Of a stretch of DNA of 64,000 nt, positions 1 to 63,572 are shown piece by piece (positions within the stretch are counted from its first letter, which is position 1; every line of letters begins with the position of its first letter). The stretch spans positions 153,390,001-153,454,000 of the forward strand of contig CM059431.1 of the NCBI GenBank assembly GCA_030390025.1, given 5' to 3'. Position numbers and translations under genes: made by a program. The DNA is from Squalus acanthias (taxonomy: Eukaryota). The notes below the pieces were generated by a model that was not told the origin of the DNA, did not search any database, and saw nothing but the letters and a program-made list of their open reading frames with translations.

Positions 1-730
1 GCCCTTTTAAAGAGGGAGTCTCACCATCAGAGACCCCTTTTAAAGAGAGAGAATCTCCCCATTAGGGATCACTTTCAAAGATGGAGTCTCACCGACAGAG
101 ACCCTTTTAAAGAGGGTGTGTCATCATCAGGGTCTCCATTTAAAGAGTGAGACTCACCATCAGGGACCCCTTGTAAAGAGGGAGTCTTTATATCAGGGAC
201 ACCTTTTAATGAGGGAGTCTCAGCATCAGGGACCCTTTTAAGGGGGAATCTTTCTCTCAGGGAGCCCTTGAAAGATGGATTATTTCTATCAGGGAGCTAC
301 TTTAATTTGAGCCTTACCATCAGGGATCCCTTTTAAAGAGGGAGTCTCACAATCAGAGACCGTTTTAAAGAGGGAGTCTTTCTCTCAGGGAGGCATTTTA
401 AAGAGGGAGTCTCACCATCAGGGCCCACTTTTAAAGAGAGAGAATCTCCCCATTAGGGATCCCTTTCAAAGAGGGAGTCTCACCGGCAGAGACCCTTTTC
501 AAGAGAGTGAGTCATCATCGGGGTCTCCTTTTAAATAGTGAGACTCACCATCAGGGACCCCTTGTAAAGCGGGAGTCTTTCTATCAGGGACCCCTTTTAA
601 AGAGGGAGTCTCAGAATCAGGGACCCCTTTTAAAGAGAGAATATCCCCATTAGGGATCCCTTTTAAAGACAATGTCGCAGCATCTTTGACACAATTTAAA
701 GTGGGTGGATCACCCTCAGGTACTCATTAT
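1..730 (+). repeat. 33-bp tandem satellite, plus orientation
   Basis: Diverged tandem copies of ATCAGGGACCCCTTTTAAAGAGGGAGTCTCACC, with a variant ending TCTTTCT. A block of about 390 bp is internally duplicated (about 1-270 vs 394-660). Confidence 0.95.
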
Positions 731-734
731 AACT

Positions 735-1977
735 TTATTATTCTCAAAACTTAACTTCGTTACATTTCCACACTTCTACTTATTTCTTAATCCATAATAT
801 CCACCAAAATCAAATACCTTGATTACCCGAGACTCAAAAGTTGTAAACTTACAGAGAATGTCTGTGAAGTTGAGAAACGCTTGTCTTCCCAGTGACTTTT
901 GACTTTTCTGTTTGAAAAGATCTATTTTTATATCTTTTTTGGGTGGTTTATCCTTTGCAGTTGTCCTGATGATGTAAGCTTAATTGTATTAAGTTATGTC
1001 TTTGGTGACTTTGTTCTATTCTTTATTGATATCTCTGTTGAATGCTTTCTGTCTTTACTCTCAATTTAGATATTGCATGCATAATTATGTCTGTACCTTA
1101 AAGGTTTCAAAAACCGTCATATAAACAAGAACAGCAATGGTTTCTCTTTGACGCAATTCTTATCAAAGTCTTTCTACTGATTTTCTAATACTACTTTAAC
1201 TGGTTATTATCAGGCGTTGTGCCTCCGTGGTATTCCATTTTCAATACAAGATCAATGTGATTGCTTGGTGTATCCATTGAAGTACTATTTTCAAAGTCGT
1301 CATGTTTGTGTACCGTTTACAACTTGTAAATTAAAACCACTTTATCTAGGGTGTTCCATACATTTCTTATTTACATCAATTGTTTTTTATCAGACAATGT
1401 GACTCCATCCTCAAGCTTAGCATTAAAACTATTTGTTCAGCAGGCGTTTCTTTTACTTGATGTCATTTCTTCAAATCCTTCTGTATGTATTATATTTACA
1501 ATATTTAAATTGAAAACACTTTAACTCAGTGTTTACTTGTTTTCTCGCGATGTGAATTGGTTGCATATTTAATCGTGTTTCCTGTTTCTAAGTTTAACAT
1601 AAAACTATTTTACGACAGGTATTTCTTACTTGATGTCATTTTTTCAAATGCACTTGTTTTTTTTAATGTCTGTGCACCTGTTCGAAGTCTTAGATTATAA
1701 CACTTTACTTGTTTTTCTCCCAAACTCAAGACATAGAGGAACCTCCCAATGGTTTGCTTCAATAGGGCATTGCCTTTGTCTCTATCCCATTCCCATATCA
1801 AAGTTTGTGTTTACAGCTTTGTGTTAACAAACCATCTTATCTCATAAGCCTGTATTCTGTTTGCAGCCTGTGTCTGCTAAGGCTTATGAATTTAAACCCA
1901 GTATGTCATTTATTAATAATTTCAGAAATCTGTTTTTATTATCGTATATTATTCTGAATCCTGGCTATTACGTCACA
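735..1977 (-). mobile_element. Foamy-like ERV LTR, long-U3 subfamily, U5 end missing
   Basis: Colinear with about 45440-46777. The sense strand begins TGTGACGTAATAGCCAGG (compare TGTGAAGGAATATCCAGG). The right flank is AGAATCTT followed by satellite. The left end is truncated and its boundary is approximate. Confidence 0.85.
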
Positions 1978-11554: not shown

Positions 11555-11665
11555 TACAGCCATGGTCTTGCCTGATGTGCCTCCCATAGGTGAATAGCTC
11601 TTACAATATGCAGCCATGGTCTTGCCTGATGTGCCTCCCATAGGTGAATAGCCCTTACTGTATGC
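11555..11665. repeat. 57-bp tandem repeat x2 in Myb gene intron 1
   Basis: CAGCCATGGTCTTGCCTGATGTGCCTCCCATAGGTGAATAGC occurs twice. The same repeat is at 14385-14517 on the other strand. Confidence 0.85.
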
Positions 11666-13714: not shown

Positions 13715-14517
13715 ATGGCACTAATTATCGGCACTGACAGGAAACTTCACTTTTACCGCCCCGGGAGGTGAGTGGAGCGCTAAATTAGGCGCTGCACACC
13801 TCTCTTAAGGCGCAAAGGCCTAGGAGTGAGGCGCTAACTCAGCGCACGAGCGCAGCGCAGCTGCTGCCAGTTAGCGAGGGAACACAGACACACTGGCGCC
13901 GGACACTTCTTAAAGCGGGGGGGGCCACTTGCTCCCCAGCCACACCCTGCTCATTGCAGCCTTGAATCTCAGCCTGGAGAGACCTGTAATCCATTATGCT
14001 GCCAAGCATGGAGAGGGTGAGAGAACGCGCTCATCGCTTCACCGAGCGGGCCTTGGATGCTCTGGTTGACGCAGTGGAGCGCAGACGATGCATGCTGTTC
14101 CCAGAGAGTGGCAGGAGGCCTTTGCCACGCGAGTTCAGAAGAGTGTGGAGGGAGGTGGCTCAGAGCGTCTCCTCCAGGAGCATGGTGCCCAGGACCCATG
14201 TCCAGTGCCGCAAAAAGTTCAACGACCTCACTCGGGTCGTCAGGGTGAGTGGCTTTTTCTCAATACCTCTCCATCCCTCCATCTCAACCTCACTCTATGG
14301 CCAGAGGGTCTTAAAACCCCAATGCACAACACTCATCCAACACCTATGGCCCTTTCATCAAACACACACACACATTCCACACATTGCATACAGTAAGGGC
14401 TATTCACCTATGGGAGGCACATCAGGCAAGACCATGGCTGCATACAGTAAGGGCTACTCACCTATGGGAGGCACATCAGGCAAGACCATGGCTGCATACA
14501 GTAAGGGCTATTCACCT
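13715..14517 (+). mobile_element. Harbinger fragment C (Myb-side subterminal region, exon 1, part of intron 1), no TIR
   Basis: Near-identical reverse complement of about 11560-12340 (MERVRERAHRFTERALDALV...CRKKFNDL). It is truncated at both ends into satellite. Confidence 0.9.
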
Positions 14518-15198: not shown

Positions 15199-15333
15199 GA
15201 AAAAAACCTGTTCAAATACATTCTGTTATTAAGGAAAGAACAGTTAAAATACATATTCATTAGCCGAATGTCAATCATATTCTTAAATCTGTCTCCATAG
15301 ACAATCTCAAAAGATGGCCTGTGGGATACCGAA

Positions 15334-15681
15334 ATGGAGGAACAATACAAGTTGCATTCGTCCACTGTCTTTCAAGACCCAGCTTAGAGCACGACACAGG
15401 AATTGGATTCGATCGAATTACTGACGACGGTCAGCCAGACGGTGGCGCCGACTCCTCCCCACGATGCTTGGCAACGCCTCAGGAATTGGATTAGCAAAAA
15501 GCCACAACCGAAACAAGGAAAGGTCAACGAGTTACTTCAACGAAGGGGGAAAACAGCGCGGTTGTAGAAGGAATCAACTGAGCGCCTGGCAAGGCCTTTA
15601 CGAAAACAAGAACCTGTCCACACGCTGGATCGAAGGAACAGCGTGTCAAGCTTCAGCTATTTCCAAATGACGTCACCTTGA
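15334..15681 (+). pseudogene. Short post-pol ORF of foamy-like ERV (about 115 codons, unknown function)
   Basis: MEEQYKLHSSTVFQDPA*STTQELDSIELL...PTPPHDAWQRLRNWI... Its two internal stops are sense codons in the homologous copy at 57471-57160, and vice versa. Confidence 0.6.
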
Positions 15682-15955
15682 CTCGTATGAATAACTTACC
15701 CCTACAGAACATAGATCTGCCGTTTGGACATTCTAAGTACATGTTGTTTCGCTAATTGCATGAAAATGTACCAATACCCTTTTAAAATGTGTTAAATTTA
15801 AAATAGGGCAAAACATTGTCCTAGGATGACTTAACAGTAATTTTCATGTAGCACATGATTAGGCTCTTGTGAATCTCGTGAAATTAATGTGCTATTGTAC
15901 ACTTATTTGTAAAATGGATCAACTCTGTCTTGCTGCTCGAGCTCATTTTTTGGTC

Positions 15956-15978
15956 AAGAGGGGGGAGGGTGGGGGCGG
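15956..15978 (+). promoter_or_regulatory. Polypurine tract (plus-strand primer)
   Basis: AAGAGGGGGGAGGGTGGGGGCGG lies immediately 5' of the LTR start defined by the solo LTRs. Confidence 0.8.
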
Positions 15979-16487
15979 GGTTAAGGAATAAGCCATATAC
16001 CTATTCAGAAAAATACATCATTCTATGAAAGAATTCTGGCCTTATAAAAACATGACAAACTGGGTTTGGAAATCTAAAAACCTAACAATGGAGAAACTGT
16101 ATTGTTAACAGCATTCTGGCTATGGAGATGGGATGGTTGTTGACACTGAATCAATAACCTTATTGAAACAGAAGGTTGCAGGCTTCTGAAGGTCTGAATC
16201 TTTGGAAAGAAGATAATGGTGCATCCTGGTTATGCTGTTCTAAGTTACACTTCGTAAACAGCACATACAATTAAGAAAAATATGCCTTAATAAAAATGAC
16301 ATCAAGTAAAAGAAACACCTGCCGTCACACTGTTTTTGTGTTAAGCTTCGGACACCTAGGGAAGAGACACGTTTCTAATGCTACCAGCTGATCTGACTGT
16401 AAGAATCGCAGGAGTCAGCAGAAAAATGAATGGAGATAATTAGCTTACATCAGCAGAAAAGCTTAAAGAAATACCACTGAAAAAGAG

Positions 16488-16493
16488 TATAAA
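16488..16493 (+). promoter_or_regulatory. Candidate LTR TATA box
   Basis: TATAAA, also present at the homologous position of the 735-1977 copy. It lies about 40 bp downstream of a conserved CTTACATC motif. Confidence 0.55.
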
Positions 16494-16764
16494 TATTGAA
16501 CTTTCAAATGGGAAAATAGATTCGCTGTAAAGTGGCAAAGCGATTCTCAGGCTTCAGAAGCGGCTCTGTAAGTCTACAACTCTTTGTACCTCGGGGATCA
16601 AGGTACTGTACTACATTTGATTTTGGTGGATATCCTGGAATAAGACTTAGAACTGCTAAACTGTAGCGAAGTTAAGATCTGATAAAAAAAATTGTAAACT
16701 TTCTCTTTTTGGAACTGTTAATGTTGCGATTGAAACACCTACTGTAATTGCTGGTCGGTTCTTT

Positions 16765-16770
16765 AATAAA
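16765..16770 (+). terminator. Candidate LTR polyadenylation signal
   Basis: AATAAA, conserved as TTTATT on the + strand near 45343 in the long solo LTR. Confidence 0.6.
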
Positions 16771-17117
16771 TCTGTATATTTTTTAGAATTGTCTCACATA
16801 ATACTTCTGTATCAAACTCGCAAACTCATCTCTGTATGCTATTTGGTGAGGAGATGCAGAATTCTGGGGGAGTTTTCCGGACCCTCATAATATCTGGAAC
16901 GTTACAGTCTAGCTAAACTTAGTAAAAGTGCTATCTGGAGGACGGTAACATTTTCAGGTTGTTCCTTTCCTTTAGGGAGAGATAGTCCAGAACTTTAGAC
17001 CAAATCAAGCATTTTTAGGATTCGGCTACATCAAATTTTAGTTGAAAGTGAAAAGACTGAGGAATACGCCTGATCTGGGGCAGCCCTAAAGGATCTAGGA
17101 TTGTAATTATCCCTTCA

Positions 17118-20100
17118 CATCAGGGACCCACTTTAAAGAGGGAGTCTCACCATTGGGGACAACTTTTAAAGAGGGAGACTTACCATCAGTGTCCCATTTT
17201 AAAGAGGGAGTCTCACCGTCAGATTCACCCTTGGGGACTCTTTCTATCAGGGACCACTTTTAAAGAGAGACTCCCCATTAGGGACCCCTTTTAAAGCGGC
17301 TCACCATCAGGGAACTCTTTTGAAGAGGGAGTCACACCGTTAGGGAACCCTTTTAAAGAGGCAGTCTCCCGATCAGGGACCCCTTTTAAGGAGAGAGTTT
17401 CGCCATCAGGGACCCCTTTTAAAGAGGGAATCGTTCTGTCAGTGAACCCTTTTAAAGAGTGAGTCTCACCATCAGAGATACATTTTAAAGAGGGAGATTT
17501 TACATCAGGGACTCCTATTAAAATGGGAGTCTCACCATCAGGGACCCCGTTTAAAGGGGGAGTCTCACCATCAGGGAACTCATTTAAATAGGCAGTCTCC
17601 CGATCAGGGACACCTTTTAAAGAGAGAGTTTCGCCATCAGGTCCCCTTTTAAAGAGGGAGTATTTCTATCATGTAGCCCTTTTAAAGTGAGTCTTACCAT
17701 CAGGGACCCCGTTTAAAGAGTGAGTCTCACCATCAGAGATCCCTTTTAAAGAGGGAGATACTACATCAGCGACTCCTATTAAAGTGGGAATCTCACCATA
17801 AGGGAACCCTTTTAAAAAGGGAGTCTCACCATCAGGGAACCCTATTAAAGAGGAAGTCTCCCGATCAGGGACGCCTTTTAAAGAGTGAGTTTCGGCATCA
17901 GGTCCCCTTTTAAAGAAGGAGTCCTCTATCAGGGAGTGCTTTTAAAGAGGGAGTATCAAAATCAGAGAATGTTTTAAAGAGCGAGTCTTTCTATCAGGGA
18001 CCACTTTTAAAGAGAAAGTCTTCCCATCAGGCCCCCTTTTTAAAGATGTAATCTCAACATCAGGGACCACTTTTAAAGGGGAGTCGCAACATCAGTGACC
18101 CATTTTAAAGAGGGATTCCTTCTAACAGGGATCCCTCTTAACAATGGAATCTCACCCTCGGGGACTCTTTTTAAAGAGACAGTCTTTCTATTAGGGACCC
18201 CTTTAAAAGAGAGAGTCTCTCCATTTGAGATCCCTTATAAAGAAGCTCACAATCAGAGACTCTTTTCAAAGAGATTGTTTCAACCTCGTGGACCCATTTT
18301 AAAGAGAGAGCCGATCTGTCCGGGACCTCTTCCAAAGAAGGCGTCTTTCTATCAGGTACCCTTTTAAAGAGAGACTCCCCCATTAGGGAACACATAAAGA
18401 GCCTCACCATCAGTGACCCATTTTTGAACAGGGAGTCTCACCATCAGAGACACATTTTAAAGAGGGAGTCTCACCCTCGGGGAGTTTTTCTATCAGGGAC
18501 CACATTTAAAGAGAGAGCCTCCCCATTAGGGACACCTTTTAAAGCGGCTTACCATCAGTGATCACTTTTAAAAGGGTGTTTCAACATCAGGGACTTCTTT
18601 TAAAGAGGGAGTCTCAACATCAGGTAACCCTTTTAAGAGGCAGTCTCCCGATCAGGGACCTCTTTTAAAGAGAGAGTTTCGCAATCAGGTCCCCTTTTAA
18701 CGATGGAGGTTCGCCATCAGGGACACCTTTTAAAGAGAGAGGTTGGCCATCAGGGACCCCTTTTAAAGAGGGAATCATTTTATCAGGGAGCCCTTTAAAA
18801 GAGAGAGTCTCCCCATCAGGGACACCTTTTAAAGAGGGAGTCTTTCTATCAGGGAGCCCTTTAAAAGTGAGACTTACTTTTAAAGAGTGAGACTCAACAT
18901 CAGAAATCCCTTTTAAAGAGGGAGATTCTACATCAGGGACTCCTATTAAAATGGGAGTCTCACCATCAGGGACCACGTTTAAAGAGGGATTCTCTCCATC
19001 CGGGAACCCTTTTAACGAGGCAGTCTCCCGATCAGGGACGCCTTTGAAAGAGAGAGTTTCGTCATCAGGCCCCTATTTAAAGAGAGAGTTGCGCCATCAG
19101 GGACCCCTTTTAAAGAGGGAGTCTTTCTATCAGGGAGTCCTTTTAAAGCGGGAGTCTCACCAACAGGGAGCTTTTTAAAGAGGGAGTCTTTCTATCAGGG
19201 AGTCCTTTTAAAGTGAATCTTAACATCAGGGACCCCTTTTCAAGAGGGTGTCTCACTATCAGGGACCACTTTTAAAGAGTGAGTGTTCCTATCACGGATC
19301 CCTTTTAAAGAATGCGTCTCATCGTCAGGAACCTTTTAAAGTGGGAATCTGACCATCAGGGACCCTTTTTAAAGAGGGAGTCTCACCATCAGGGACCACT
19401 TTTAAAGGGGAGTCGCAACATCAGAGACCCATTTTAAAGAGAGAGTCTTTCTATCAGGGAGCCTCTTAAAAAGGGAATCTCACCCTCGGGGACTCTTTTT
19501 AAAGAGAACGTATTTCTATTAGGGACCCCTTTAAAAGGGAGAGTCTCTACATTTGGGATCCCATTTAAAGAAGCTCACCATCAGAGACCCCGTTTAAAGA
19601 AGTTGTCTCACACTCGTGGACCCATTTTAAAGAGAGAGAATAACTATCAGGGACCCCTTCAAAAGAGGGCGCCTTTCTATCAGGTACCCCTTTTAAAGAG
19701 AGATTTCCCACAAGAGGGACCACTTTTAAAAAGGCTCATCGTCAGCGTCCCTTTTTAATGAGGGTGTTTCAGCATCAGGGACTCATTTTAAAGGTGGAGT
19801 TTCACTATCAGGGTCTAATTTTAAAGAGGGAGTCTCAACTTTCAGGGGCCCCTTTTAAGAGGGAGTTTCACCATAAGGACCCCTCATAAAGAGTGATTTT
19901 CTCCATCAGGGATCCCTTATAAAGAGGGAGTCTTTCTATCAGGGAGCCCTTTAAAAGTGAGTCTTACCAATAGGGACCCCTTGTAAAGAGGGAGTCTCTT
20001 TCATCAGAGATAACTTTTAAACAGGCAGAGTCTACATCATGGAATTCTATTAAAGTGGGAGTCTCATCATCAGGGATCCATTTTAATGAGATAGTCTCAC

Positions 20101-28060: not shown

Positions 28061-28075
28061 TGACGGAGAGAATCT

Positions 28076-42568: not shown

Positions 42569-43702
42569 TGAAGGGTTAATTACTAGTCCTAGCCCCTTTA
42601 GGGCTTATCCGGAACAGGCGTATTTCTCAGACATTCACTTTCAACTAAAGTTTGAGTTAGCCGAATCGTAAAGGCGCTTAATTGTGTCTGAAGATCGGGA
42701 CTATCACTCCCGAAAGGAAAGGAACAACCTGAAAATGTTACCGTCCTCCAAATAGCACTTTTAATAAGTTTAGCTAGACTGTAACGTTCCGGATATTATG
42801 AGGATAAGGAAAAATCCCCCAGAATTCTACAACTTCTCACGAAAGTGTGTACAGAGATTGAATTTGCGAGTTTGATACAGAAGTCATATGTGAGTCAATA
42901 TAAAAAAATATATAGATAGATTAAATAACCGACATGTAATTTACAGTTGGTGTGTCAATCGCAACATTAACAGTTCCAAAAAATGAAAGATTTACAATCT
43001 TATTATCAGAGATCCTTATTCTCAAATCTTAACTTCGCTGCAGTTTTACTGTTCTTAAAGATTATTGAGGATATCCACCAAAATCAAATATAGTAACTTT
43101 GATCCCCGAGGTACAAATTCTTGTAGAATTATGGAGCCACCTCTGAAGCTGAGAATCGCTTTGCCCGTTAAAGCGTGTCTACTATCCCATTTGAGAGTTC
43201 AATATTTGCACACTTTTCCAGTGTTATTTCCTTTAAGCTTTTCTGCAGATGTAAGCTAATTATCTATATTCATTTTTCTGCAGACCCCTGCATTCCAAGT
43301 CTCCTCAGCTGGTAGTAATACAGAGTCGTGTCTCCTCTAGGTTTTCCAAGCTTACCATAAAAAACGGTGTAACATCAGGTGCCTTTCATTTGTTGTCATT
43401 TTTACTAAGACCTTCTGTTTGTGCCTCTTTACGAAGTGTAAATTAGAACACCTTGTACAGTGTTAAACTTTGTTTTGTTCCGAAAGGTTCATATTGTCGG
43501 GAGTCTTTAACCTTCGGCTTCAATCAGATTATTGATTCAGTGTCAACAACTATCTTATCTCTGTAGCCAGAATTATATCATAGCTTTAGATTGTTGAGGC
43601 TTCCAGATTTCCAAACCCAGTTTGCCATGTTTTAATACGGCCAGAATTCTTTCATACTATGGTGTGCTTTACTGAATAGGTTATATGGCTTATTCCTTCA
43701 CA
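42569..43702 (-). mobile_element. Solo LTR of foamy-like ERV, short subfamily (1134 bp), 4-bp TSD AGAC
   Basis: The + strand reads ggtg-AGAC|TGAAGGG ... TTCCTTCACA|AGAC-tccctc, with TG...CA ends. It is homologous to 15979-17117. Confidence 0.92.
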
Positions 43703-45004: not shown

Positions 45005-46777
45005 TGAAGGTATAATTACAAGTTCTAGCCCTTTCGGACTACCCCAGATCAGGCTTTTTCCCCATACGTTTACCTTCAACTAAAGTTTGCGGTAGCCGGA
45101 TCGCATAAGACGCTTAATTGAGCCTAATGGTCAGACTACCTCTCCCTAAAGGAAAGAAGCGGTCTAAAGATGTTACCATCCTCCAGATAGTACTTTTAAT
45201 AAGTTTAACTAGACTGTAACCTTTCGGATATTATAAGGGTCCGGAATACCCCCAGAATTTTGCAACTCCTTTGAGTGTACAGAATTTGAGTTCGCAAGAT
45301 GATACAGAAATACTCTTTGAGACTTTTCTAACAATATATAGATTTATTAACGAAAAGACATTTATATAACATTTATTATGCCAATCGCAACTTTAATCGT
45401 TCAAAATACAAATAGCTTACTTTATCTTATTCTCAGATTTGTATTCCCAAATCTTAACTTCGTTACATTTCCACACTTCTACTTATTCCTTAATCCAGAA
45501 TATCCACCAAAATCAAATAAGAGTACCTTGATCCCCGAGACTCAAAAGTTAAAATCTTACAGAGAATTTTCTGTTAAGTTGAGAAACGCTTGCCTTCTCA
45601 GCGACTTCTGACTTTTCTGTCTGAAAAGATCTATTTTTACATATTTTTTTGGGTGGTTTATCCTTTGAGAGTTTTGTGCTGATGTAAGTTTAATTGTATC
45701 AATCATTCTTTGCTGACTTTGTTCTATTCTTTATTGATATCTCTGTTGAATGCATTTTGACTTGTGTCCTGTTTAGGTGTTTCCAAAACCATCATAAAGA
45801 CAATAACAAAAAATGGTTTCGGTTTTATGCAATTCTTAGGAAGTCTTTCTATTGAATTTCTAAAATAACAACAGAAAACGCTGGAAAAACTCAGCAGGCC
45901 AGGCAACATCCGTGGAAAGAGAAACAGAGTTAACGTTTCAGGTCGAAACCCTTCGTCGGTTTCGACCTGAAACGTTAACTCTGCTTCTCTCTCCACGGAT
46001 GTTGCCTGGCCTGCTGAGTTTTTCCAGCGTTTTCTGTTGTTATTTCGGATTTTCAGCATCCGCAGTATTTTGCGATCGTATTGAATTTTTAATACTACTT
46101 CAAATGTTTTTTATCAGACGTTTTGACTTCGTGGCATTCCATGTTCAATAAAAGAACAATGTAATTGCTTGTTGCTTCCATTGAAGTAATATTTTCAAAG
46201 TCGTCTTTTTTGGGTACTTTTTACAACTTGTAAATTAAAAACACTTCTCTAGTATCATCATGCATTTCTAATTTGCTTCAATTGATTTTTACCTTGTGAC
46301 TCCACCTTTCAAGCTTAACGTTAGAACTATTTGTTCAGAAGGCATTTCTTTCACTTGATGTCATTTATTTAAAGCCTTCTGTAAGTATTATATTTACAAT
46401 ATGTTAATTGAAAATACTTTAACTAAAGTGTTCAATTGTTTTCTCGGTTTCTGAATTAGTTGCATATTTAATGATGTTTCCTTATTCTAAGTTTAACATA
46501 AATCTATTTTACGATAGGTATTTCTTACTTGATGTCATTTTTTCAAAAGCACTTTGTTTTTTTAATGTTCTGTGCACCTGTTCGACGTGTTAGATTATAA
46601 CACTTTACTTCGGTCATTCCTCTGTTTTGTCCAAAACTCTGGACATAGAGGAACCTCCCAATGGTTTGCTTCAATAGCGCATTGTCTTTGTCAATATCCC
46701 ATTCCCATATCAAAGCTTGTGTTTACGGCTTTGTGTTAGTATCGTACATTTTTCTGAATCCTGGATATTCCTTCACA
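45005..46777 (-). mobile_element. Solo LTR of foamy-like ERV, long-U3 subfamily, 4-bp TSD AGAC
   Basis: The + strand reads ggtg-AGAC|TGAAGGT ... TTCCTTCACA|AGAC-tctttc. R/U5 is homologous to the short LTRs and U3 to 735-1977. It contains a nested 216-bp insertion. Confidence 0.92.
45863..46078. mobile_element. Short Penelope-like terminal fragment forming an 88-bp-arm hairpin
   Basis: Arms 45863-45950 and 45958-46045 with loop CTTCGTC. It is absent from the homologous LTR at about 1185 and flanked by TATTGAATTT(C/T)TA on both sides. The minus strand has a degenerate hammerhead-like core, CCGACGAAGGGTTTCGACCTGAAACGTT. Confidence 0.75.
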
Positions 46778-50049: not shown

Positions 50050-50835
50050 TGAAATAATTATTACCAGTCCTAGCCCTTTTCTGGCTACCCCGGATCAGGC
50101 ATATTCCCCAGAAGTTCACCTTTAACTGAAGTTAGAGTTAGCTGAATCCTAATGACGCTTAATTTCTCTCCCGAAAGGAACGGAACGACCTGAAGATGTT
50201 ACCGTGCTCCAGATAGCACTTTTAATAAGTTTAGCTAGACTGTAACCTTCCGGTTATTATGAGGGTTCGGAAAACTCCTCCAGAATTCAGCAACTCATCA
50301 CCAAAGAGTGTACAGAGATTAATTATGCGAGTTTGATACAGAGGTACTATTTGAGACAATTCTAAAAAAACATAGATGTATTAAAGATTCGACATGTATT
50401 TACAGTTGTTGATTCAATCGTAACTTTAACAGTTCAAAATACAAAAAAACGTACAATTCTTATCAGAGATCCTTATTCTCAAATCTGAACTTCGTTACAT
50501 TTTTACATTTCTTACTTAGTCTTAGTCCAGAATATCCACCAAAATCAAATAAAAGGAACTTTGATCCCCGAGACTTAACGAGTTGAAAATTTTTACAGAG
50601 CTTCCCTCTGAAGTCTGAGAATCGCTTTGCCCCTTCCAGCGAATTCTGTCTTCCTATTTTTAAATACAATCTTTTATGCTCTTTCTCAGTGGTATATCCT
50701 TTGAAGTTTTCTGCTGATGTAAGCTAATTATTTCTAGTCATTCTCCTGTTGACCCCTGCTTTTCTTACAATTAGTTCAGCTTGTAGTTTGTAGAATAATG
50801 CCTGCTCTGTAAGTGTTCGAATCTTATCATAACAT
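50050..50835 (-). mobile_element. LTR (U5, R, part of U3), probable 3' LTR of the provirus at 57159-62743
   Basis: The + strand reads ggtg-AGAC|TGAAAT... It is colinear with 42569-43360, on the same strand as gag-pol, and cut off by CR1 sequence at about 50836. Confidence 0.85.
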
Positions 50836-51394
50836 TCCATTGGCATTCTTAATCACTTGCTGCAGCTGCATACTAACCTTTTGAGTTTCGTGCACCAGGA
50901 CCCCCAGATCCCTTTGTAGTTCAGTACTTTCAAGTTTCTTGCCATCAAGATAATAACTTTCTCTACTATTTTTCCTGCCAAAGTGCATAACCTCACACTT
51001 TCCAGTATTGTATTACATCTGCCAAATCTCTACCCACTTACTTAGCCTGTCTATGTCCCCTTGCAGATATTTTATGTCCTCCTCACTCACTACTTTCCCT
51101 CCGATCTTAGTATCAACTGCAAACTTTGATATGTTGCACTCGGTCACCTCCTCCAAATCGTTAATATAGATTGTAAAGAGTTGGGGACCCAACACTGACC
51201 CCTGCGGAACACCACTAGTTACTGATTGCCAGTCTGAGAATGAGCAATTTATCCCAACTCTCTGCCTTCTGTTAAATAGCCAATCCTCTATCCATGCCAG
51301 AATATTACCCCCAATCCCGTAATTTTTTATCTTAAGCAATAAACTTTTGTGTGGCACCTTGTCAAATGCCTTTTGGAAGTCTAAATACACCACA

Positions 51395-52442
51395 TGGCAG
51401 GCAGTAACAAGTGGGGTACCACAGGGATCTGTCCTGGGTCCCCAGCTGTTCACAATTTACATTAATGACCTGGATCAGGGAGTCGGATGCAGCATTTCCA
51501 AATTTGCAGACGACACTAAACTAGGAGGGGGGGTGGGCTCAGAGGAGGAGACCAGGAAGCTCCAGAGCGATTTGGACAGACTGGGTGATTGGGCGGATAA
51601 ATGGCAGATGCACTATAATGTGGACAAGTGCGAAGTTATCCACCTTGGGTGCAGGAACGGGAGGGCAAATTATTATTTAAATGGCAATAAAGTGGGAGAG
51701 GGGGAAGTACAGAGAGACCTGGGTGTTCTTGTACACCAGTCACTGAAGGCGAGCATGCAGGTGCAACAGGCGATCAAGAAGGCAAATGGTATGCTGGCCT
51801 TCATAGCAAAAGGGTTGGAATACAGGAACAGGGATACCTTGCTGCAGCTGTACAGGGCACTGGTGAGACCACACCTCGAGTACTGTGTACAGTTTTGGTC
51901 GCCTCATCTGAGGAAAGATGTTCTTGCCATGGAGGGGGTGCAGCGGCGATTCACCAGGCTGATACCAGGAATGGCGGGATTGACCTATGAGGAGAGACTA
52001 TGTAGTTTAGGGATGTACACACTGGAGTTTAGAAGATTGAGAGGGGACCTCATAGAAGTGTATAAAATTCTGACAGGTCGAGACAGACTAGATGCAGAAG
52101 GAATGTTTCCCTTGGTGGGTGAGAACAGAACTAGAGGACATAATTTAAGGATAAGGGCTAAACCATTTAGGACAGAAATGAGGGGGAATTTCTTCACTCA
52201 GAGGGTGGTGAACCTGTGGAACTCATTGCCACAGAGGGCAGTGTACGCCAGCTCATTAAATATATTTAAGAGGGAATTAGATATATTTCTACAGGCAAAA
52301 GGGGTTAAGGGTTACGGAGAGAAGGCGGGGACGGGATACTGAATTGGAGGATCAGCCATGATCTCATTAAATGGCGGAGCAGGCTCGAAGGGCCGGATGG
52401 CCTACTCCTGCTCCTATCTTCTATGTATCTATGTATCTATGT
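51395..52442 (+). mobile_element. CR1 LINE 3' fragment nested in the minus-strand CR1
   Basis: Uninterrupted RT C-terminal frame to 52342, a 3'UTR and a (CTATGTAT)n tail. Host sequence TACACCACAT|CCACTGC rejoins across it with ACAT on both sides. Confidence 0.93.
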
Positions 52443-53995
52443 ACATCCACTGCTTCACCCTTATCCACCCTGTATGTTACTTCCTCAAAGAACTCCAGCA
52501 AATTTGTCAAACATGACTTCCCGTTCATAAAACCATGGTGACTTTGTCTTATTAAATTATGATTATCCAAATGTCCCGTTACTGTCTCCTTAATAATAGA
52601 CTCCAAAATTTTACCTACCACAGATGTTAAGCTAACCGGTCTATAGTTTCCAGCGATCTGTCTACTGCCTTTTTTAAATAAGGGTCTTACATTAGCAGTT
52701 TTCCAGTCTGCCGTGATCTTTGCTAATCCAGGGAGTTTTGGAAAATGATTTCCAATGAATCCACAGTCCCTACCGCCACTTCCCTCAAGACCCTAGGATG
52801 TTAACCATTAGGTCCAGGTGTTTTATCCGCCTTGAGTCCCATTATTTTACCGAGTACCACTTCATTTGTGATTTTGATCGTGTTTAGCTCCTCCCCCCAT
52901 ATAGCCCCTTTTTGTCCAGTGTTGGGATATTCTTAGTGTCCTCTACTGTAAAGACTGATACAAAATATTGATTCAGTGTTTTTGCCATCTCCATATTTCC
53001 GACCATTAATTTCCCGGTCTCATCCTCTAAGGGACCAACATTTACTTTAGCCACCCTTTTTCTTTTTATATAACTATAAAAACTCTTACTATCTGTTTTT
53101 ATATTTTTTGCTAATTTACTTTAATAATCTATCTTTCCTTTGTTAATCAATCTTTTTTTATTTTTTGCTGTCTTTTAAAGTTTTCCCAATCCTCTATCCT
53201 CCCACTAGATTTGCCTACCTTAATAGCCCTTGATTTTGGTCCAATACTAATTTTAATTTCTTTACTTAGCCACGGATGACTGTCTTTTCTTTTACACCCT
53301 TTTCTTCATAGTGGAATATATTTTTTTGGAAGTTGTGAAATAACTCCTTAAATGTACACCACTGATCATGTATCGTCTTACCCTTTAATTTATTTTCCCA
53401 ATCCACTCTACTCAATTCCGCTCGCATACCTTCATAGTCTCCTTTATTCAAGCTTAGCACGCTTGTTTGAGATCCAACCTTCTCACCCTCTAATTGAATA
53501 TGGAATTCAACCATGTTATGGTCACTCATTCCAAGGGGATCCTTTACTACCATTTTTAATTAATCCTGTCTCGTTACACAGGACCAGTTCTAAGGTTGCT
53601 TGCCCACTGGTCGGTTCAATAACATACTGCTCAAGAAACCCATCCCTAATACACTCAATCAACTCATCCTCAAGGCAGCCCTGCCCAATCTGATTTGTCC
53701 AATTACATGATAGTTAAAATCCACCATAATTATAGATGTTCCCTTATTACAAGCCTCAACTATTTCCTGATTGATACTCCGTCCAACAGAGGTGCAACTG
53801 TTCGGAGGCCTATAGTCTACCCCCACTAGTGTTTTTTTCCCCCTTATTATTCCTTATCTCCACCCAAAATGTTTCATTATCCTGATCTTTTAACCCATAT
53901 CATGTCTCTGTATTACGGTGATTACTTCCTTTATTAACATAGCCACCCCACCTCCCATTCCTTCAGTGCCTGTCCTTCCTGATTGTTAAATAACC

Positions 53996-54172
53996 TTGAG
54001 AAGTCGCACAACACCAGGTTATAGTCCAACAGTTTTATTTGAAATCACAAGCTTGAAGGAGCAGTAACTCCGAAAGCTTGTGATTTCAAATAAATCTGTT
54101 GGACTATAACCTGGTGTTGTGCGACTTCTCAATTTTGTCCACCCCAGTCCAACACCGGCATCTCCGCATCAT
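53996..54172. mobile_element. Short Penelope-like pseudo-LTR hairpin, same family as 62744-64000
   Basis: Inverted arms TTGAGAAGTCGCACAACACCAGG ... CCTGGTGTTGTGCGACTTCTCAA. The tail is identical to 63535-63575 and ends at the ORF ATG. It is flanked by TGTTA(A/T)ATAACCT. Confidence 0.85.
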
Positions 54173-55002
54173 GTTATATAACCTGGTATGTTTAATTCCG
54201 AGGCATTGTCACCCTGCAGCCATGTTTCTGTAATGCCCACAAATCATACCCATAAGTAGTTATTTGTGCCATTAACTCGTCTATTTTGTTATGAATGCTA
54301 CGTGCATTCAGATAGAGAACTTTCAAATATGTTTTTTGACACTTATGTTCCTGCTTTTGCCCTTTTTATTACTTTACCTTTTACTCCATACCTTCTGCCC
54401 CTTCCTGACACACTCTGGTTTTTAATTTCCCCACTGCTACCTAAGTCTATGACCTTCTCTATTTTCATTTTTATTATTTGCTCTCCAGGAACCTCCCCCC
54501 CACCCCCCACTAGATAGTTTAAGGCCCTCTCTACAGCCCTAGTTATCTGATCCGCCAGCTCTCCAGTCCCAGCACTGGCCAAGTGAAGCCCGTCCCAATG
54601 GAACAGCACCCTCCAGCCCCAACACTGGTGCCAGTGTCCTAGGAAGCAAAACCCATTTCTACCACACCAGACTTTATCCACTCATTTAACTCTCTAATTT
54701 TATTTGTCCTAGCCAAATTCGCTCGTGGCTCAGGTAATAATCCAGAGATTATTACCCTTGAGGTTCTGTTTTTTTTTTAATTTGACCCCTAGCTGCTCAT
54801 ACCCCTTTAACAGAACCGGCTTCCTTGTCCTATCGATGTCGTTTGTACCAACATGGACCACGACAACTGGATCCACCCCCTCCCAGTGCAAGTGTCTTTC
54901 CAGCCCAGATGAGTTGTCCTTAACCCTGCCACCGGGCAGGCAACACAGCCTAAGGGACTCTAACACTCGGCTGCAGATAACTCTATCTATTCCCCTAATA
55001 AT

Positions 55003-56098
55003 TGGAGGAAGGGACCAAGTGTAACATATCAAAATTTGCAGATGATACAAAGATGGAAGGGAAAGTAGTGAGTGAGGAGGACATAAAAAACCTGCAAGGG
55101 GACATAGAAAGGCTAAGTAAGTGGGCAGAGATTTGGCAGATGGAATACAACACTGGAAAGTGTGAGGTGATGCACTTTGGCAGGAAAAATCCTAGAGCAA
55201 TTTATTATCTTAATGGCAAGAAACTGGAGAGTACTGAAGTGCAAAGCGATCTGGGGGTCCTGGTGCACGAAACTCAAAAGGTTAGTATGCAGGTGCAGCA
55301 AGTGATTAAGAAGGCAAATGGAATGTTGGCTTTCATTGCTAGGGGGATAGAATATAAAAATAGGGAGGTATTGCTTCAGTTGTACAAGGTATTGATGAGA
55401 CCGCACCTGGAATACTGCATACAGTTTTGGTGTCCTTACTTAAGGAAATACATCCTTACTCTCGAGGCAGTGCAAAAAATGTTCACTCGGTTAATCCCGG
55501 GGATGAGGGGGTGGTCATATGAGGAGAGGTTGTGTAGATTGGGACTCTACTCATTGGAGTTCAGAAGAATGAGAGGCGATCTTATTGAAACATATAAGAT
55601 TGTGAAGGGGTTGGATCGGGTGGATGCGGGGAGGATGTTCCCGATGACGGGTGAAACTAGAACTAGGGGACATAGTCTTAGAATAAGGGGCTGCTCTTTT
55701 AAAACTGAGATGAGGAGGAACTACTTCACTCAGAGGGTGGTAGGTCCATGGAATATGCTGCCACAAAAAGCTGTAGAAGCTACATCATTAAATAAATTTA
55801 AAACAGAAATAGAAAGTTTCCTAGAAGTAAAGGGCATTAAGGGTTACGGGGAGCGGGCAGGAATTTGGACATGAGTCTTTGTTCGGATCGGTCATGGCCC
55901 TGTGGGTAATGGAGCGGGCCCAGGGACCGTGTAGCCTGATTCTGCTCCTATTTCGTGTGTGCAATTCTGTTAGATGCAGGAGATGGTTCTGTGATAGTAG
56001 ATTGGCGGTTAGGATCAGATCAGCAATGATCTTATTGAATGGCGGAGCAGGCTCGAGGGGCCGATTGGCCTACTCCTGCTCCTATTTCTTATGTTCTT
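55003..56098 (+). mobile_element. CR1 LINE 3' fragment nested in ORF1 of the minus-strand CR1
   Basis: Open RT C-terminal frame to 55874, a 3'UTR and tail TTCTTATGTTCTT. ATAAT occurs on both sides (54998-55002, 56099-56103). Confidence 0.92.
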
Positions 56099-57489
56099 AT
56101 AATACTATCCCCTACCACTACAACATTTCTATTTACTCCCCCCTCTTTAATGGCCCCCCTTTCCACGGTGCTGTGGCCAGGTTGCTTATCCTCCCTGCAG
56201 TCCCTGCTCCTGTCCCCACAGGGAGTAAGAACCTCGAACCTGTTGGACTACAGCAAGGGCTGAGGCTCCTCCAACACTACCTCCTGGATCCCCGTACCTG
56301 CCTCACACGTCGTCACACCGTCCTGTCCCTGACCATGGGCTACATCTGAATTAATTAACTTCATAGGTGTGACCACCTCCTGAAACACAGAGTCCAGGTA
56401 CTTCTCCCCATCACTGATGTGTCGCAGTGTCTGAAGCTCAGACTCCAGCTCATCAACACGGAGCTGGAGTTCCTGTAGCAGCAGACACTTATCACAAATG
56501 TAATCACCGTGAGCCTCAATGGGGTCCACCGGCTCCCACATCTCGCAACAGTAAGACATCACCTGCTCCATCCTATGTAATTAATTAATTTGTTTTATTG
56601 TTAGATTTGGACACTCTCTGCCCGATTATAGATGGTAGTACCCCTCTAATTAATTGGATTTAAATTAAATCAATCCCTCTAAATTACACCAGTTAAATTG
56701 TTTACCAACAGTCACTCTGCACCAGAAAAGCTTTATTAACTACAACCCACAGAGTTAAAGTTTGAAAAGAGCAACCTACACCCCACTCACCCGAACTTAC
56801 AATTACCCAAACTCAGCACTCTCTGCTGACTCGCACTCAGTGCTTGCTCGCACTAGCACTGGTCTTTTTATACTGTGTGTTTGTTTACAGCCAAATGAGT
56901 CACCCCTGCTGGTTGATTAGAAAACTGTTTTCCACTGCCTGCTGTGCCAATGTACATCTACAGCAGTGTAAACTTGTTTTACTCTTCTTAAATCAACATA
57001 ATCCCAAATATTTAACTGTTACCCTTCACTTAAACTGCTTAAGTACTCTTATCAAGACTGATTTAAAGAGAACTAACAATTAAAGAACTCTCACACTTAC
57101 CCAAACTCAGCACTCTCTGCTGACTCGCACTCAGTGCTTGCTCGCACTAGCACTGGTCACACACTGTTCCTTCGATCCGGTGTGTGTACTGATTCTTGTT
57201 TTCATAAAGGTCTTGCCAGGCACTCAGTTGATTCCATCTTTCTCCACGATGTCTTCCTTCTTCGTTGAAGCAACTCTTTAATCTTTCCTTGTTTCAGTTG
57301 TTGCTTTTCGCAAATCCAAATCCTGAGGCTTTGCCAAGCATCATGTGGAGGAGTCGGCGACTCCGTCTGACTGAGTTTCATCAGTAGTTCGATCGCATCC
57401 ATTTCCTTTGTCATGCTCCAAGCTGGGTCTTGAAAGACAGTGTACGACTGCACCTTGTATTATTCCTCCATTTCGGTATCCCGCAGGAC

Positions 57490-60400
57490 ATCTTTTGAGA
57501 TTGTCTATGGAGACAGTTTTAAGAATATGCTTGCCATTCGGTTAATTAATATGTATTTGAACTGTTCTTTCGTTAATAACAGAATGTATTTGAACAGGTT
57601 TTTTCCACTTCGGTCTTAAACTAGGTTTTTGCTCGAACCTCTTTTCCTGTACCCATTCTCCTACTAGGGGTTTCCATGCTTTGTTTGTCAATCGTTTCTG
57701 TTTTTTTGCTTCCCTTATCATCTGATCAATTTGATGAATCTCCTCTTTTACTTCTTTTTTTAATTCTAATTGTCGCTGTCGGGTCAAGGACTCAGAGAGT
57801 GCAGAGGCAATAAAATAACAAGGGGTAAGTGTTGTATTCATCTCAACTCCACACATCAGATAATCTGATGCAGATGCGGGCAGATTATTAAGTGATAGCT
57901 GCACCTCCGGAATAACGGTGGTCCACTTATTTCCCCTGAATCTCAACAGTTTGACCAATAGCTGTTTTACTTTCTGGTTTTCCGTTCCACCAGCCCCTCT
58001 GGTAGCGGATGACGTGGCGTGCATGTGCTCTAACCCAATCCCCCTTTGTTTGCAGTAGTCTTCGAAGACCTTGGAGACAAAGGCTCTGCCTTGATCGGAG
58101 TGTAAGATTTTGGGTGCACCAGCTTAAGTAATTATGTTAGAAATAGCCTTAGCTAGTGCGTTTTCTGAAACAATTTTTGTGGGGACCAGCCAGCAGAAGA
58201 AAGTGCATCCACCTACACAAACGAGAACATGTCTGTATCCCAAAGACGGGGGAAGTGGTCCAATAAAGTCAATAAAGCATGTTCCCCATTGACTCATCAG
58301 CTTTCACAGGAGCCAATGGTGGTGGCTTAATTGGTGATGAATTATTAGTTAACCAGCATGGCTCACAATTTGCCACGTATGTTTTACAGGCATTAAGCAT
58401 GCTTGGCCACCAATATAAGGAGGTAAATTTGCAGAATGTTGTTCTGGCACCACAATGTGCTTGACTTATGTCCTCTTGAGCTCCTTTTACAAGCTGTTCT
58501 CGTTTGTGTCTCGGGGGTAACCCTCGGTTTCCCTTGGGCAAATTAGCTAGCACAATACCCGCACGGGTTCCGAGTAAAAGTATTTGGTGGATATCCTGGT
58601 GGTTTCTCTCTTGTTGGGTCTAATATCTGAATCAGTTCCTCATCCTGATTAGCTGCCCGTTCTGCACCAGTGATAACATTAATATTGGCAGGCCCCTCTC
58701 GAGGGGATGTCAAGCAGACTAAAGGTTTCGGTTGTTCGTCTGCAACACTGTTTCCTTTTGTGAGTACTGTCCCAGTGGAATGCCCGTTCACATGAATCAC
58801 CTGACAATTCTGTTTCTCCATTCTCGAAAGGAAAATGTCTTCCCACATTGACTTAAGTTTTATGGGTTTACACTTATGATTGGTAAAATGTGTTTGTTCC
58901 CAGAAAACTAGATCTTTGTTATCTCCTCTGTTATGGTAGTCACTATCCATACAGATTCGTGTGGGTTTAATAAAGTCTGCCTTTTCTAAAGCATACCGTA
59001 GTGCTGCAGCTTCATCATACTGCGCTGTCTTATGGCCAAAGGGTATGGACAGTAATTCTTCTGTATAAAAAGAATAGGAATCTCGAAAGGTCCCTACTTC
59101 TATCTCCATCCCAGCTGAGGATTGTTGGGATGTCCCTTGTTTAATCGTCATTAACGATCCATCACAGTAAATGACTTGATGGTATTATGTAAGCGGTCTC
59201 ATAGGTATTTGTCTCATTCGCTGCCCCGTATCCTCATTCTCCATGATGGCGATAAGCTCTGTCCATTTCCGGGGAGTGGAATTTAATGATGAGTGTTGGA
59301 TCATTCAAGTAAGCTTTCCCATTTATCATATCAGATCTGGGTGGCTCTTTTTTCATCAGAGGCCATCCTCAATACTGAACTTAAATCGGTAATTTCAGTA
59401 GAGATGGTAATGGGGTATTTCCCAGAAGGGTTCGTGCCTTGATGAGGCATTGGACTACCATAGTCATGAACCTTTCTTTTTTAATGTACCTCCTTTCGAC
59501 ATTGAAAAAGTTATACAAATGGAACTGAATGGGCACTATGTTCTTTTCATTATAGAAAACTGCAACTGCCATTTTAGGTAATGACCTGAGATGAATATTG
59601 AGGGGAACTTGTAGGACCATCTGCTCCACGTCTATGGCTTTTCGTACCTCTCGGCATAATTGTTGCAATTTTGTGTAATCCTCTGGTGAAAATATGAATG
59701 GTCCTTTTATGCTTCGCCCACTCTAGCATACAGGGTTGCTGAGAGCTCGGCAAAGGTTGGCGTAACGGATCGAGCAAAATTCAGGAGTCCTAAACTTGCT
59801 TGCAGATTTTTCAGAATTTTAGGATATTGAATGGTGAATAATTTTTATTTATAGGATTGAGTTAATCCTCTACCGAATCCAGTTATTCGCAGGCACTGAA
59901 AATCTACCTCTTCCCTAACTAGTTGACTCTTTTTTATGTTGATTAATTACCCAGCAGTTGTAAGTCTGGATAAAAAACTATCAATGGCTTTCAAGTGCTC
60001 TTGGAGATTGTCATGTGACAGAGATATATCGTCCACATAAGAATTGACGTTAGGTAGGTATTTTAAATGGTCTATTTTGTGGACTGAAAAGAGAACGGGG
60101 CTGTTTTGAAATTCCTGGGACAATCTGGCCCAGCAGTACTGATAATCATTGGGTCCAGTCATCGCTGTTTTTGGCCAATCAGTTTTTTCGATTGGATGTG
60201 ACCAGAAGCCGTTTGCAGGACCAATACAAGATTTATATTTTTCCCTCGTGATTCCAGAGAGAAGGGCTGTGGAATTTAGCTGTTGTGCAGTATGTGGGGC
60301 TGTTATCTTATTTAAGGCTGTATAATCGACTAATAATCTCCAACTCCCATCTGGTTTAGAAACACCAAACAATGGTGAATTAGTTCTAGATGCCATTTTG

Positions 60401-60990
60401 ATTAAGACACCTTATTCTGTTAGTTCTTTGAGCGTTGTTAGAAGATCTATTTTTCCTTTGTGGTCCTGAATAGGCACTGTTTTTTAGGTTTGTTCCAGCC
60501 AGCATCAAGTGGGTGTGGTTTGATGTTTATCTTTCCACGTTGATTTGGATGTCGTTGTAGATAAGGGTAGAATCTATTAATGAGTTGCTCGAGGTCTTTG
60601 CCTCCCCCCTCTAGGCAAATTCGATTAAGCTGTGTCCGAACATGTTTTTCCCTGTTATCCTGGTCTGCGGATGCTTCTACAGATCTGGTTGAAATTTTAA
60701 GGTAATGTTTCATGTCTGGTTGTCCTATAATGAGGGAACCGGACAATTGTGGCATCGGTCGGACATCGAGGGTCACCGTGATTCCATATATGGTAATAGG
60801 TATTTTGTAACAATTAATAATTTTGGTTTGGTCTTGTGTGAATCCCCCTAATGGTATTTTACAAATTGGGCTTCCCAAATCTGTGCTGTTAGATTTTATA
60901 ATTGCAGGATCTATTACAGTGTAATCAGCTCCCGTATCAAACAGGGCCTTCACTTGTGTGTTTGTGGTTAAGTTTGCCAGGGCATAGGGG
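57490..60990 (-). pseudogene. pol: Foamy-like pol (PR-RT-RNase H-IN)
   Basis: PR: ALFDTGADYTVI. RT: KPDGSWRLLVDY...ANGFWSHPI...QYCWARLSQEFQNSP...YVDDISLSHD. RNase H: YCDGS...IPFGHKTAQYDE...MDSDY...GNSVAD. IN: AHCG...YWWPSM...CEPC, FIDFIGPLPPSLGY, LHSDQGRAF, WKPLVGEWVQE...SLRPKWKKP, TVSIDNLK. Confidence 0.93.
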
Positions 60991-62590
60991 AATTCAAGAG
61001 GCGCTGGCTGGATGCCAGGCCTTGAATCCTGGGACTGTCCATACTCAGGATCCTGAGTTTTATTTGGTACTTTGTCTTTAATTATTTTAACTGATTTGTG
61101 TTCCTCGCTCTTGGGGGAATCATGTTTTCCAGATTCCTTTGGTAGTTTGTCGGACCGTTTATTATCTTGACGATCCTCCTGTTGGGGTGGACGTTGGTTC
61201 TGCTGGGAGTAGTTTTGATCCCCATTTCGGATTTCCCGGTAGCCCCCCATGGCTCTCTGATAGTTTTGGCCAGTGTAAAAGCTATCCCCATAGGGAGTCC
61301 ACTGTCCTTCACTTTCGTTTTGAGGTCTTGCCCGTCTTCTATCCTATCTTTCCGGGGAGAAATCTTCCTCGTATTGTGGGCGAGTTGGGGGTGTAAACCT
61401 TCTGGAATACCCTCTTGGGGGTTCCCGAGCCACGAGCTTGTGTCTGGGCGGGGTGGAATTGAGACTTGGGTCTAAACAGACCTTGTTTCTGAGTACTAAA
61501 GGTACCTTCTCCGGTTTTTATATCCCTAGTTTCTGATCACATTATAGGTTTAGTTTGGGGTAGACCTTAGAGGTAATGATTTAATTGGATAATGCGATTG
61601 AAATTTTCCCATATTTGTTGGTTATTTCGATAATCGTTTAAAACCCCCTGACAGGCAAGTTTGAGGGCTGTATTTTGGTATTTATTGGACAGGCAACCAT
61701 GGACAATGCCTCAGTTATCCTGTGTAAGTACATTGCCTAATCTGTAGGCAGCTACCAGCCCTTTAGTTGTGGCGGTATTAGTGAGTATTTCCTTGATGGA
61801 ACCCATTACATGCACTCCCTGATTTGCCGTGAGAACATAGGCGTATATTTAAACCCATTTGTTAATGGGGGAATTAAGTCTGAACTTAGTATCATTTGCA
61901 GTAGTTGCCTCAGGTGTGGGGCATTTTAATCTTGGCAAGAGGTTTCCAATTTATCAAGGTTTGTTAGAATCCAGCAGGTTTTTTTCCGGCTGGTGTTTCC
62001 CGGCTTACCACATATTGTGCAGATAGAGCTTAGGTTTACTTGTCCTTGGGGAGCAATGTGTGGTTGCTGGGTTTGGCTTACTGGACCAGTAAGCATTGCC
62101 CCACCAGCATTTAGATATGATTGAGCTAGTGCCTGTCGACATTGATTATAATGGATTCTAAGCTGTCTATATTTTTCTTGAAGATTCTGCTCATTTATTT
62201 CATCATGAACTTCCACTTCAACCGGAATCCATGTCCCCCGGGAGCTTAGGCAGCTCCTGGTCCTACTTTTCTGCCATGGTTGCCACCACCATGTTTGGCA
62301 CCATTCATTAGCCCTCCCAATTGTGCATTTGTGCACGTTATCATTAAGGAATTCAGTGGATTTGGAATATCTGTTTCAATATCCTACTGGATATTCTGTA
62401 TCAACTGATTCTGGGGATCAACATCAATCGTGCCATGAGTTCTAACTGCTCCATCGGCTTCACAGTCTCCTATTTCAAAAACTATCACTTGGTTTTGTGA
62501 AGGTAAAGGAATAGAATTATTTCCCCTAATAATGCAATCGTTTGAATTTCCTAATAAAAAGTATTGGCCAATTACGACAGGGTTTGCCAT
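60991..62590 (-). pseudogene. gag: Foamy-like gag
   Basis: ATG at 62590. The central segment VNLSSICTICGKPG...WILTNLDKLE and IKEILTNTATTKGLVAAYRLGNVLTQDN resembles the foamy Gag capsid-like domain. The tail is low-complexity and R/Q/P-rich, with no Cys-His knuckle seen. Confidence 0.75.
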
Positions 62591-62798
62591 TTCTTAAGGA
62601 CCTAATCTCGGTTAGGTTTTAACATGAAATGTATAAGAAATTTCTCGTCCTCAATGGTATATTGAGGGCGTTCTGATTTAAGTTGTACATGGCCTGATCA
62701 GGGACTTGCTGTCTCTAGAGACTTAAGTCTGGGTCATATTACCACAAAATTGAGAGGTCGCACAACACCAGGTTATAGTCCAACAGTTTTATTTGAAA

Positions 62799-63485: not shown

Positions 63486-63572
63486 TTTAAAATAAAACTG
63501 TTGGACTATAACCTGGTGTTGTGCGACCTCTCAATTTTGTCCACCCCAGTCCAACACCGGCATCTCCGCATC

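Follow-up and report, generated by a model that had tools for sequence, protein, structure and literature searches.

Can a foamy virus lose its envelope gene and persist in a germ line as a retrotransposon that moves only within its own cell? This question is raised by an LTR element of Squalus acanthias, found in a stretch of 64,000 nucleotides of contig CM059431.1 (the window, to which all coordinates refer). In the copy that retains the 3' end of the element (copy 1), the integrase motif SVSIDNLK, which extends to 15311, is followed after 644 nt by the purine tract AAGAGGGGGGAGGG, which begins at 15956; this spacing is close to the 650 bp or so given in a preliminary description of the locus, whereas the distance from SIDNLK to the LTR in simian foamy genomes is 4295-4364 nt (nine of nine). 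That description offered two readings, a foamy-like lineage that lost env and became an intracellular retrotransposon, or a primitively env-less relative of retroviruses. Copy 1 is itself truncated on its 5' side at 15200, where the orientation of the surrounding satellite switches; the window alone is therefore unable to exclude a deletion private to this copy, and contigs of other copies are needed.

The foamy-like character proposed for the element is supported by its RT, integrase, Gag central domain, A9 protease and RT tree. In a second, decayed copy (copy 2), the RT matches foamy RT with an E of 3e-61, versus 3e-20 for the best non-foamy RT, and the integrase gives matches down to E 2e-37, all eight of them belonging to one group, the PFV integrase and its pieces. 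The copy 2 counterpart of 15201-15311 aligns to PFV integrase 314-384 (E 9e-10) and also to SH3_11. Despite its decay, Pol shares 35-37% identity with 10 simian foamy Pols, the tether and the RNase H both aligning, and the element is 25% identical to gypsy-like Pol versus 42-44% to foamy RT, which speaks against membership of Ty3/Gypsy. Gag_FV_central (PF20672; 35.8 bits, Pfam cut-off 30) and Spuma_A9PTase (PF03539; 22.4 bits, Pfam cut-off 21) are both recognized, and a gag HMM matches with E 1e-9. No canonical CCHC box was found in three frames of gag, with a single loose CxxC motif ahead of the central domain, and the Gag N-terminus resembles the foamy Gag Env-binding domain at 2.5 bits, a score reached by 3 of 1000 shuffles and not significant window-wide. 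A G/Q/R-rich, Gag-tail-like stretch and the protease share one open frame in copy 2 (60447-61343, minus strand; one copy only), which could be a Gag-Pol fusion or an artefact of decay; foamy viruses make Pol separately, from a spliced RNA.

In an RT tree of 43 rows (17 of 18 foamy loci, 14 of 20 and 10 of 63 from two further sets, P0004, and the element), the element falls on the foamy side with support 83/97 and a long branch, and its placement within the mammalian foamy viruses is regarded as an artefact of that long branch. A tree placement had been proposed in the preliminary description, and the part of it obtained here is the grouping with foamy viruses as against Ty3/Gypsy-type elements, the rows holding no fish, amphibian, loki or Odin elements. 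One sequence (L041) was dropped from the tree for a stop, and two more (L026 and L039) were excluded, their foamy- and gamma-type RT motif matches in viral-collection contigs of 53 kb and 30 kb being probably due to chance. Protein searches with the integrase (longer, E of at most 1e-20) and with the RT (near) gave no relatives and are weak negatives; the longer search with the RT gave two of 959 candidates, one a simian foamy Pol and the other a gypsy-like protein. The element's own RT and integrase, scanned against viral and metagenome sets, had no match.

The claim that the element has no env is borne out. An env HMM built from nine simian foamy genomes has no match better than E 2.8 in the six-frame translation of the window, whereas pol, the control in the same search, reaches E values down to 1e-89. 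The profile search proposed earlier for the interval between pol and the LTR was thus carried out with a positive control and found nothing; the six frames of the interval contain no Pfam family at an E of at most 1, and no membrane-spanning or env-like sequence was found in it. By HMM, Pfam, hydropathy and shuffle comparison, no env gene with a WxxW leader, SU and TM was found in the element. As for accessory genes of the tas/bel kind, 19 simian accessory ORFs give a best E of 0.29, and the interval has no room for them; in addition, no third-position excess was found between two LTRs, and there is no sign of a coding U3. Judged by sequence, the element appears to be, and is filed as, an env-less derivative of foamy viruses and not an ordinary member of the group.

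The interval itself can be divided into several parts (Table 1). The integrase had been described as ending at SVSIDNLK, which holds for the motif, and the pol frame runs 60 codons further, to a stop at 15492-15494; in foamy genomes, the pol tail after SIDNLK is 14-43 codons long in 16 of 17 and 92 in one. A short +1 frame, overlooked by the earlier reading, overlaps this tail, and together they leave a clearly non-coding part of only about 275 nt. At the other end, the LTR had been said to follow the polypurine tract directly. The element does have a GGG|TG junction, and simian foamy genomes read GAG(G/C)AGAGGG|TG at the same place, but about nine additional G-rich bases separate this junction in copy 1 from the start of the homology with a solo LTR, which is 79% over 1165 aligned nt.

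Table 1. Parts of the element and its relatives in the window.
Feature	Position	Strand	Basis or remark
Copy 1, end of integrase C-terminal SH3 domain, to SIDNLK	15201..15311	+	One private in-frame stop
Pol-frame tail, 60 codons past SIDNLK	15312..15494	+	ORF reading and comparison with 17 foamy genomes
Short +1 frame, 115 codons, hydrophilic, basic, two stops	15334..15681	+	ATG 22 nt after SIDNLK
Non-coding AT-rich 3' region, common to other family copies	15682..15955	+	Covered in four of four sequencing runs
Polypurine tract (15956-15969), foamy-type GGG|TG junction and a few extra G-rich bases	15956..15979	+	Sequence and simian foamy comparison
3' LTR, about 1.14 kb, CA end, then 33-bp satellite	15980..17117	+	Homology to other LTRs
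Copy 2: decayed gag, protease, RT, tether, RNase H, integrase and first 104 codons of the short frame	57159..62743	-	
Nested non-LTR LINE pieces, presumably CR1-type, interrupting copy 2	50833..57158	.	RVT_1; likeness to other LINE pieces
Same-family LTR remnant, probably the 3' LTR of copy 2	50050..50832	-	75% to 16336-17129; ends CA|GTCT
Solo LTR, TG...CA, 4-bp GTCT target duplication in satellite	42569..43702	-	
Longer, more diverged solo LTR, TG...CA, 4-bp GTCT target duplication	45005..46777	-	
Partial LTR, 3' end lost, orientation opposite to satellite	729..1977	-	

The position of the short frame recalls that of env. In foamy genomes, the env ATG lies 13 to 25 nt after SIDNLK in 16 of 17 and always (17 of 17) uses the +1 frame, and the ATG of the short frame, itself in the +1 frame, falls on the same aligned NG dipeptide as the foamy env start; the probability of meeting an ATG by chance at five such sites is 0.08. 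This position points toward env loss. The frame is common to copies 1 and 2 over 104 codons with 69% identity, each copy having two private stops, and no stop is common to both (P 0.025), the other two frames having just one each. On the other hand, the changes between the two copies, 11 synonymous and 32 non-synonymous, show no sign of selection on the frame, and comparison with foamy Env or Env leaders reveals no detectable likeness (222-795 of 1000 shuffles score equally high). The frame has neither a WxxW pair nor a hydrophobic stretch, and its best 19-residue hydropathy is 0.34, compared with 3.1-3.4 in foamy Env leaders. No homologue was found among 1.84 billion representatives or in Pfam, and PDB matches are at chance level, with E of at least 1. 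One metagenome match of 17 residues (L010) was rejected as chance: its likeness at the nucleotide level is limited to a GA repeat, and it looks bacterial or phage-like. The frame is either an env stump, as judged by position only, or a small accessory gene, possibly comparable to the ORFs that teleost foamy-like elements carry between pol and env (PMC5210030, in the part available), and the indications that it is coding are weak.

Copy 2 aligns ungapped to copy 1 over 15201-15646, with 87% identity (389 of 446 nt), and reaches 335 nt past the motif before a LINE interrupts it, much as the preliminary description had it when it gave colinearity for about 330 bp. The LINE, which we take to be CR1-type, is cut at about 50833 and joined by deletion to the LTR remnant that matches 16336 onward, and cuts also affect the 5' LTR and the leader of this copy. 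Positions 15647-15979 have no second copy anywhere in the 64-kb window; copy 2 has lost them and therefore cannot test for env. Of the five LTR copies in the window, two are complete solo LTRs, and both of these have an intact 4-bp duplication; LTRs of the family differ by about 17-28%. The two members of the longer subtype (45005-46777 and 729-1977) are 84% alike over 667 nt; this subtype has an internal U3 duplication and is only about 70% like the LTR of copy 1, and the LTRs accordingly fall into at least two subfamilies.

The window consists of a 33-bp satellite with LINEs, Harbinger-type transposons and pieces of one LTR element. The satellite array flips its orientation repeatedly (15200, 28061, 12403); every switch coincides with a transposon or a piece of provirus, a pattern suggestive of inversions. 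The LTR insertions (42569-43702, 45005-46777, 50050, 17117 and 1977) lie at one phase of the satellite unit, with 729-1977 reversed. A Harbinger-type transposon with DDE_Tnp_4 and a Myb-like gene occupies 6609-14513 as an inverted duplication (6967-9234 palindrome, 92%), and further pieces of this type lie at 13715-14513 and 28061-28958. Palindromic inserts are found at 62744-63540 (about 800 bp), where the leader of copy 2 is cut, at 53996-54173 (140-180 bp), a related palindrome inside the LINE, and at 45863-46045 (183 bp).

Other copies of the element can be followed in contigs from four of 23 listed sequencing runs (three organisms, four studies), which were aligned to 15201-16350 at 80% likeness. 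All 30 bins of this stretch are covered in each of the four runs, with 1281-3719 contigs per run (not a copy count). Among the contigs listed, to which 10235 further pieces are to be added, non-self contigs, divergent by about 10-17%, bridge 15248-15931 without a break, reaching at least 31 nt in both directions by manual count; only at 15742-15755 does the link depend on an overlap of 35 nt between two pieces. Some examples are the contigs at 15382-15696 in run X3, 15422-15763 in X5, and 15738-15899 and 15778-15962 in X6. The junction between the polypurine tract and the LTR is crossed by other contigs as well (row 15982; joint 15908-16007), and no single contig among those listed spans the whole interval. 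Among the best 24 of 657 rows, one loose end lies inside the interval, and 23 of its 29 letters match, by eye, sequence upstream in the window; the share of pieces that run into unlike sequence is 0-0.01, a value probably dominated by the LTR. Relative to integrase depth, the depth after the short frame is 0.78 in X3, 0.62 in X5, 0.82 in X6 and 0.15 in X1, a run of which 55% was read; depth of this kind is not fit for ranking parts. These contigs support a short pol-to-LTR gap common to other copies in three organisms, and the absence of env across the family is strongly favoured. Copies carrying an env of about 3 kb, the case that the preliminary description had set against its own reading, were not seen in the contigs of the four runs.

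One place within the interval could still hide an env-bearing subset. Depth at 15773-15787 is down to about 1-2% of that in the flanks, and three of the listed pieces carry 23-37 unaligned letters there. A helper-dependent family would account for this: env-bearing members, possibly the majority, would have env near 15780 behind a small ORF of the teleost style, and the deleted form would be co-packaged and enveloped in trans. The clipped pieces and collapsed depth at 15772-15788 and the depth step in X1 fit such a family, loose ends are known from the best 24 of 657 rows, and the part of PMC5210030 available describes ORFs between pol and env in teleost foamy-like ERVs. Nevertheless, contigs in all four runs cross 15773-15787 colinearly, the bulk of the copies not being shown to do so, and copy 1 differs from the crossing contigs at six positions within 22 nt, a cluster that would explain the dip, as copy 1 divergence explains the comparable one at 15916-15921. 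Moreover, no loose end occurs at 15772 or 15788 among the best 24 of 657 rows, although a lower-depth row of the interval is among them, and the depth step is absent in three of the four runs. A helper-dependent subfamily is on balance unlikely, though likelier than the other alternatives. A deletion confined to copy 1 would be in keeping with the rearranged 5' end of that copy and with a copy 2 that cannot test the region, but the non-self contigs from three organisms, which among those listed bridge essentially every position of the interval, make it the least probable of the explanations considered. One dead, env-deleted provirus might also have been carried passively to many copies, through expansion of the satellite or through segmental duplication, as every copy in the window sits in rearranged satellite. 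Each of the two complete solo LTRs has its own duplication, however, and both the divergence among the LTRs and their 5' flanks, which in run X5 continue into varied sequence (70 records, agreement 0.44), make passive multiplication improbable. The same varied flanks leave unsupported the earlier link between env loss and an evolved target specificity.

The element could alternatively be primitively env-less, in the manner of Odin elements, and in the extreme form of this explanation it would stand for a never-enveloped root of the foamy viruses. No trace of env is seen by sequence; Odin elements lack env and possess a dual RNase H (PMC9040795, as far as available), and the elephant shark FLERVs are represented by pol only, with shark FLERVs branching outside the clade of tetrapods and coelacanth (PMC5512871, in part). 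In contrast, the foamy-specific Gag central and A9 domains are present in the element, the Gags of env-bearing teleost FLERVs have no foamy Gag likeness detectable according to the available part of PMC5210030, and the element therefore probably lies inside the env-bearing radiation, which makes loss the simpler explanation. An ATG is found where env would begin, the Gag N-terminus has a weak likeness to the Env-binding domain that is not significant window-wide, and Odin is described as sister to lokiretroviruses and not to foamy viruses (PMC9040795, same part). Together with the grouping in the RT tree, these points render this second reading of the preliminary description very improbable.

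The best explanation, and the first of the two readings offered earlier, is that env was lost once, in an ancestor, and that the family then probably spread inside cells as an LTR retrotransposon. A foamy-virus lineage, itself presumably env-bearing, would have entered the germ line, and an ancestral copy would have lost env and the accessory block (about 3.7 kb), leaving a stump frame where env had begun, followed by a short untranslated stretch, the polypurine tract and the LTR. Foamy budding requires the Env leader bound to Gag (PMC7828637, in part), and foamy reverse transcription occurs late (PMC3814592, in part). Since cytoplasmic capsids are unable to bud without Env, and the producer cell is where the late reverse transcription takes place, a gag-pol copy devoid of env would have only its own cell to re-integrate into, and its LTRs would have to be active without a Tas-like gene. 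The family would then multiply as an intracellular LTR retrotransposon, giving rise to numerous internal copies and to solo LTRs in far greater number. The copy number is high and the insertions are separate, as seen from the contigs per run and the LTR copies in the window. Primate foamy virus retrotransposes intracellularly, whereas feline foamy virus does not do so efficiently (PMC3705263, in part), and env-less ERVs can reach high copy number as superspreaders (PMC10536682, in part). A bolder and tentative version is that a foamy virus became an autonomous LTR retrotransposon, independent of Env and Tas and high-copy across several related fish species, keeping a small env-start protein that has taken on another function, for example in transactivation or in binding the capsid.

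The exogenous foamy viruses (Spumaretrovirinae, 17 genomes) and the element share the Gag central domain, the A9 protease, the order RT-tether-RNase H-integrase, SIDNLK, the GGG|TG junction, the 4-bp duplication and a +1-frame ATG just past SIDNLK. Unlike these viruses, which have an env of about 985 codons and tas/bel2, the element has neither, is about 3.7 kb shorter from integrase to LTR, and is endogenous and high-copy. ERV-L elements are only distantly related to foamy viruses. Among env-less ERVs, IAP (PMC10536682) and MuERV-L (PMC5930517) also combine gag-pol without env, high copy number and presumed intracellular spread, as described in the parts available; they are beta-type or ERV-L, whereas the Gag and protease domains of the element are foamy-specific. 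Odin shares gag-pol, a dual RNase H and the lack of env, but it is a cnidarian, low-copy element, sister to lokiretroviruses, and is set apart from the present one by description only (PMC9040795, in part).

Foamy viruses rarely endogenise in mammals (PMC10581153, in part). Endogenous foamy and foamy-like viruses of fish and amphibians have in common with the element a foamy-type pol in the fish germ line, the 4-bp duplication and the GGGTG junction (PMC5210030, PMC5512871, PMC10699275 and bioRxiv 2020.12.18.423569, all in part), and the motif and the duplication are described for foamy and foamy-like viruses in the available part of PMC5210030. In these sources, so far as they were available, the full-length amphibian, teleost, coelacanth and avian elements carry env, and the fish and amphibian ones also carry accessory genes, unlike the element, while the elephant shark FLERVs are known from pol alone, the absence of the rest being unexplained there (PMC5512871). 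Env-less ERVs are a known kind, and a foamy example is apparently new within the literature covered, in which, for the parts available, no env-less foamy lineage was found described; a 2023 study of cartilaginous-fish EFVs (Wang, Chen and Cui) may already cover the family, and the supplementary catshark maps of PMC10699275 also bear on its novelty.

Beta-type and ERV-L elements are known to have lost env and then spread within cells, and foamy capsids are those of the most Env-dependent group. The element raises the question of how a foamy LTR functions without room for tas. If the loss of env took place as proposed, env-based mining, as in PMC6955096 (in part), would miss such lineages, and a possible explanation would be at hand for the shark foamy-like elements that were found by pol alone (PMC5512871, in part). 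Retrotransposition within the cell, as observed in culture for primate foamy virus, could then become a lasting lifestyle.
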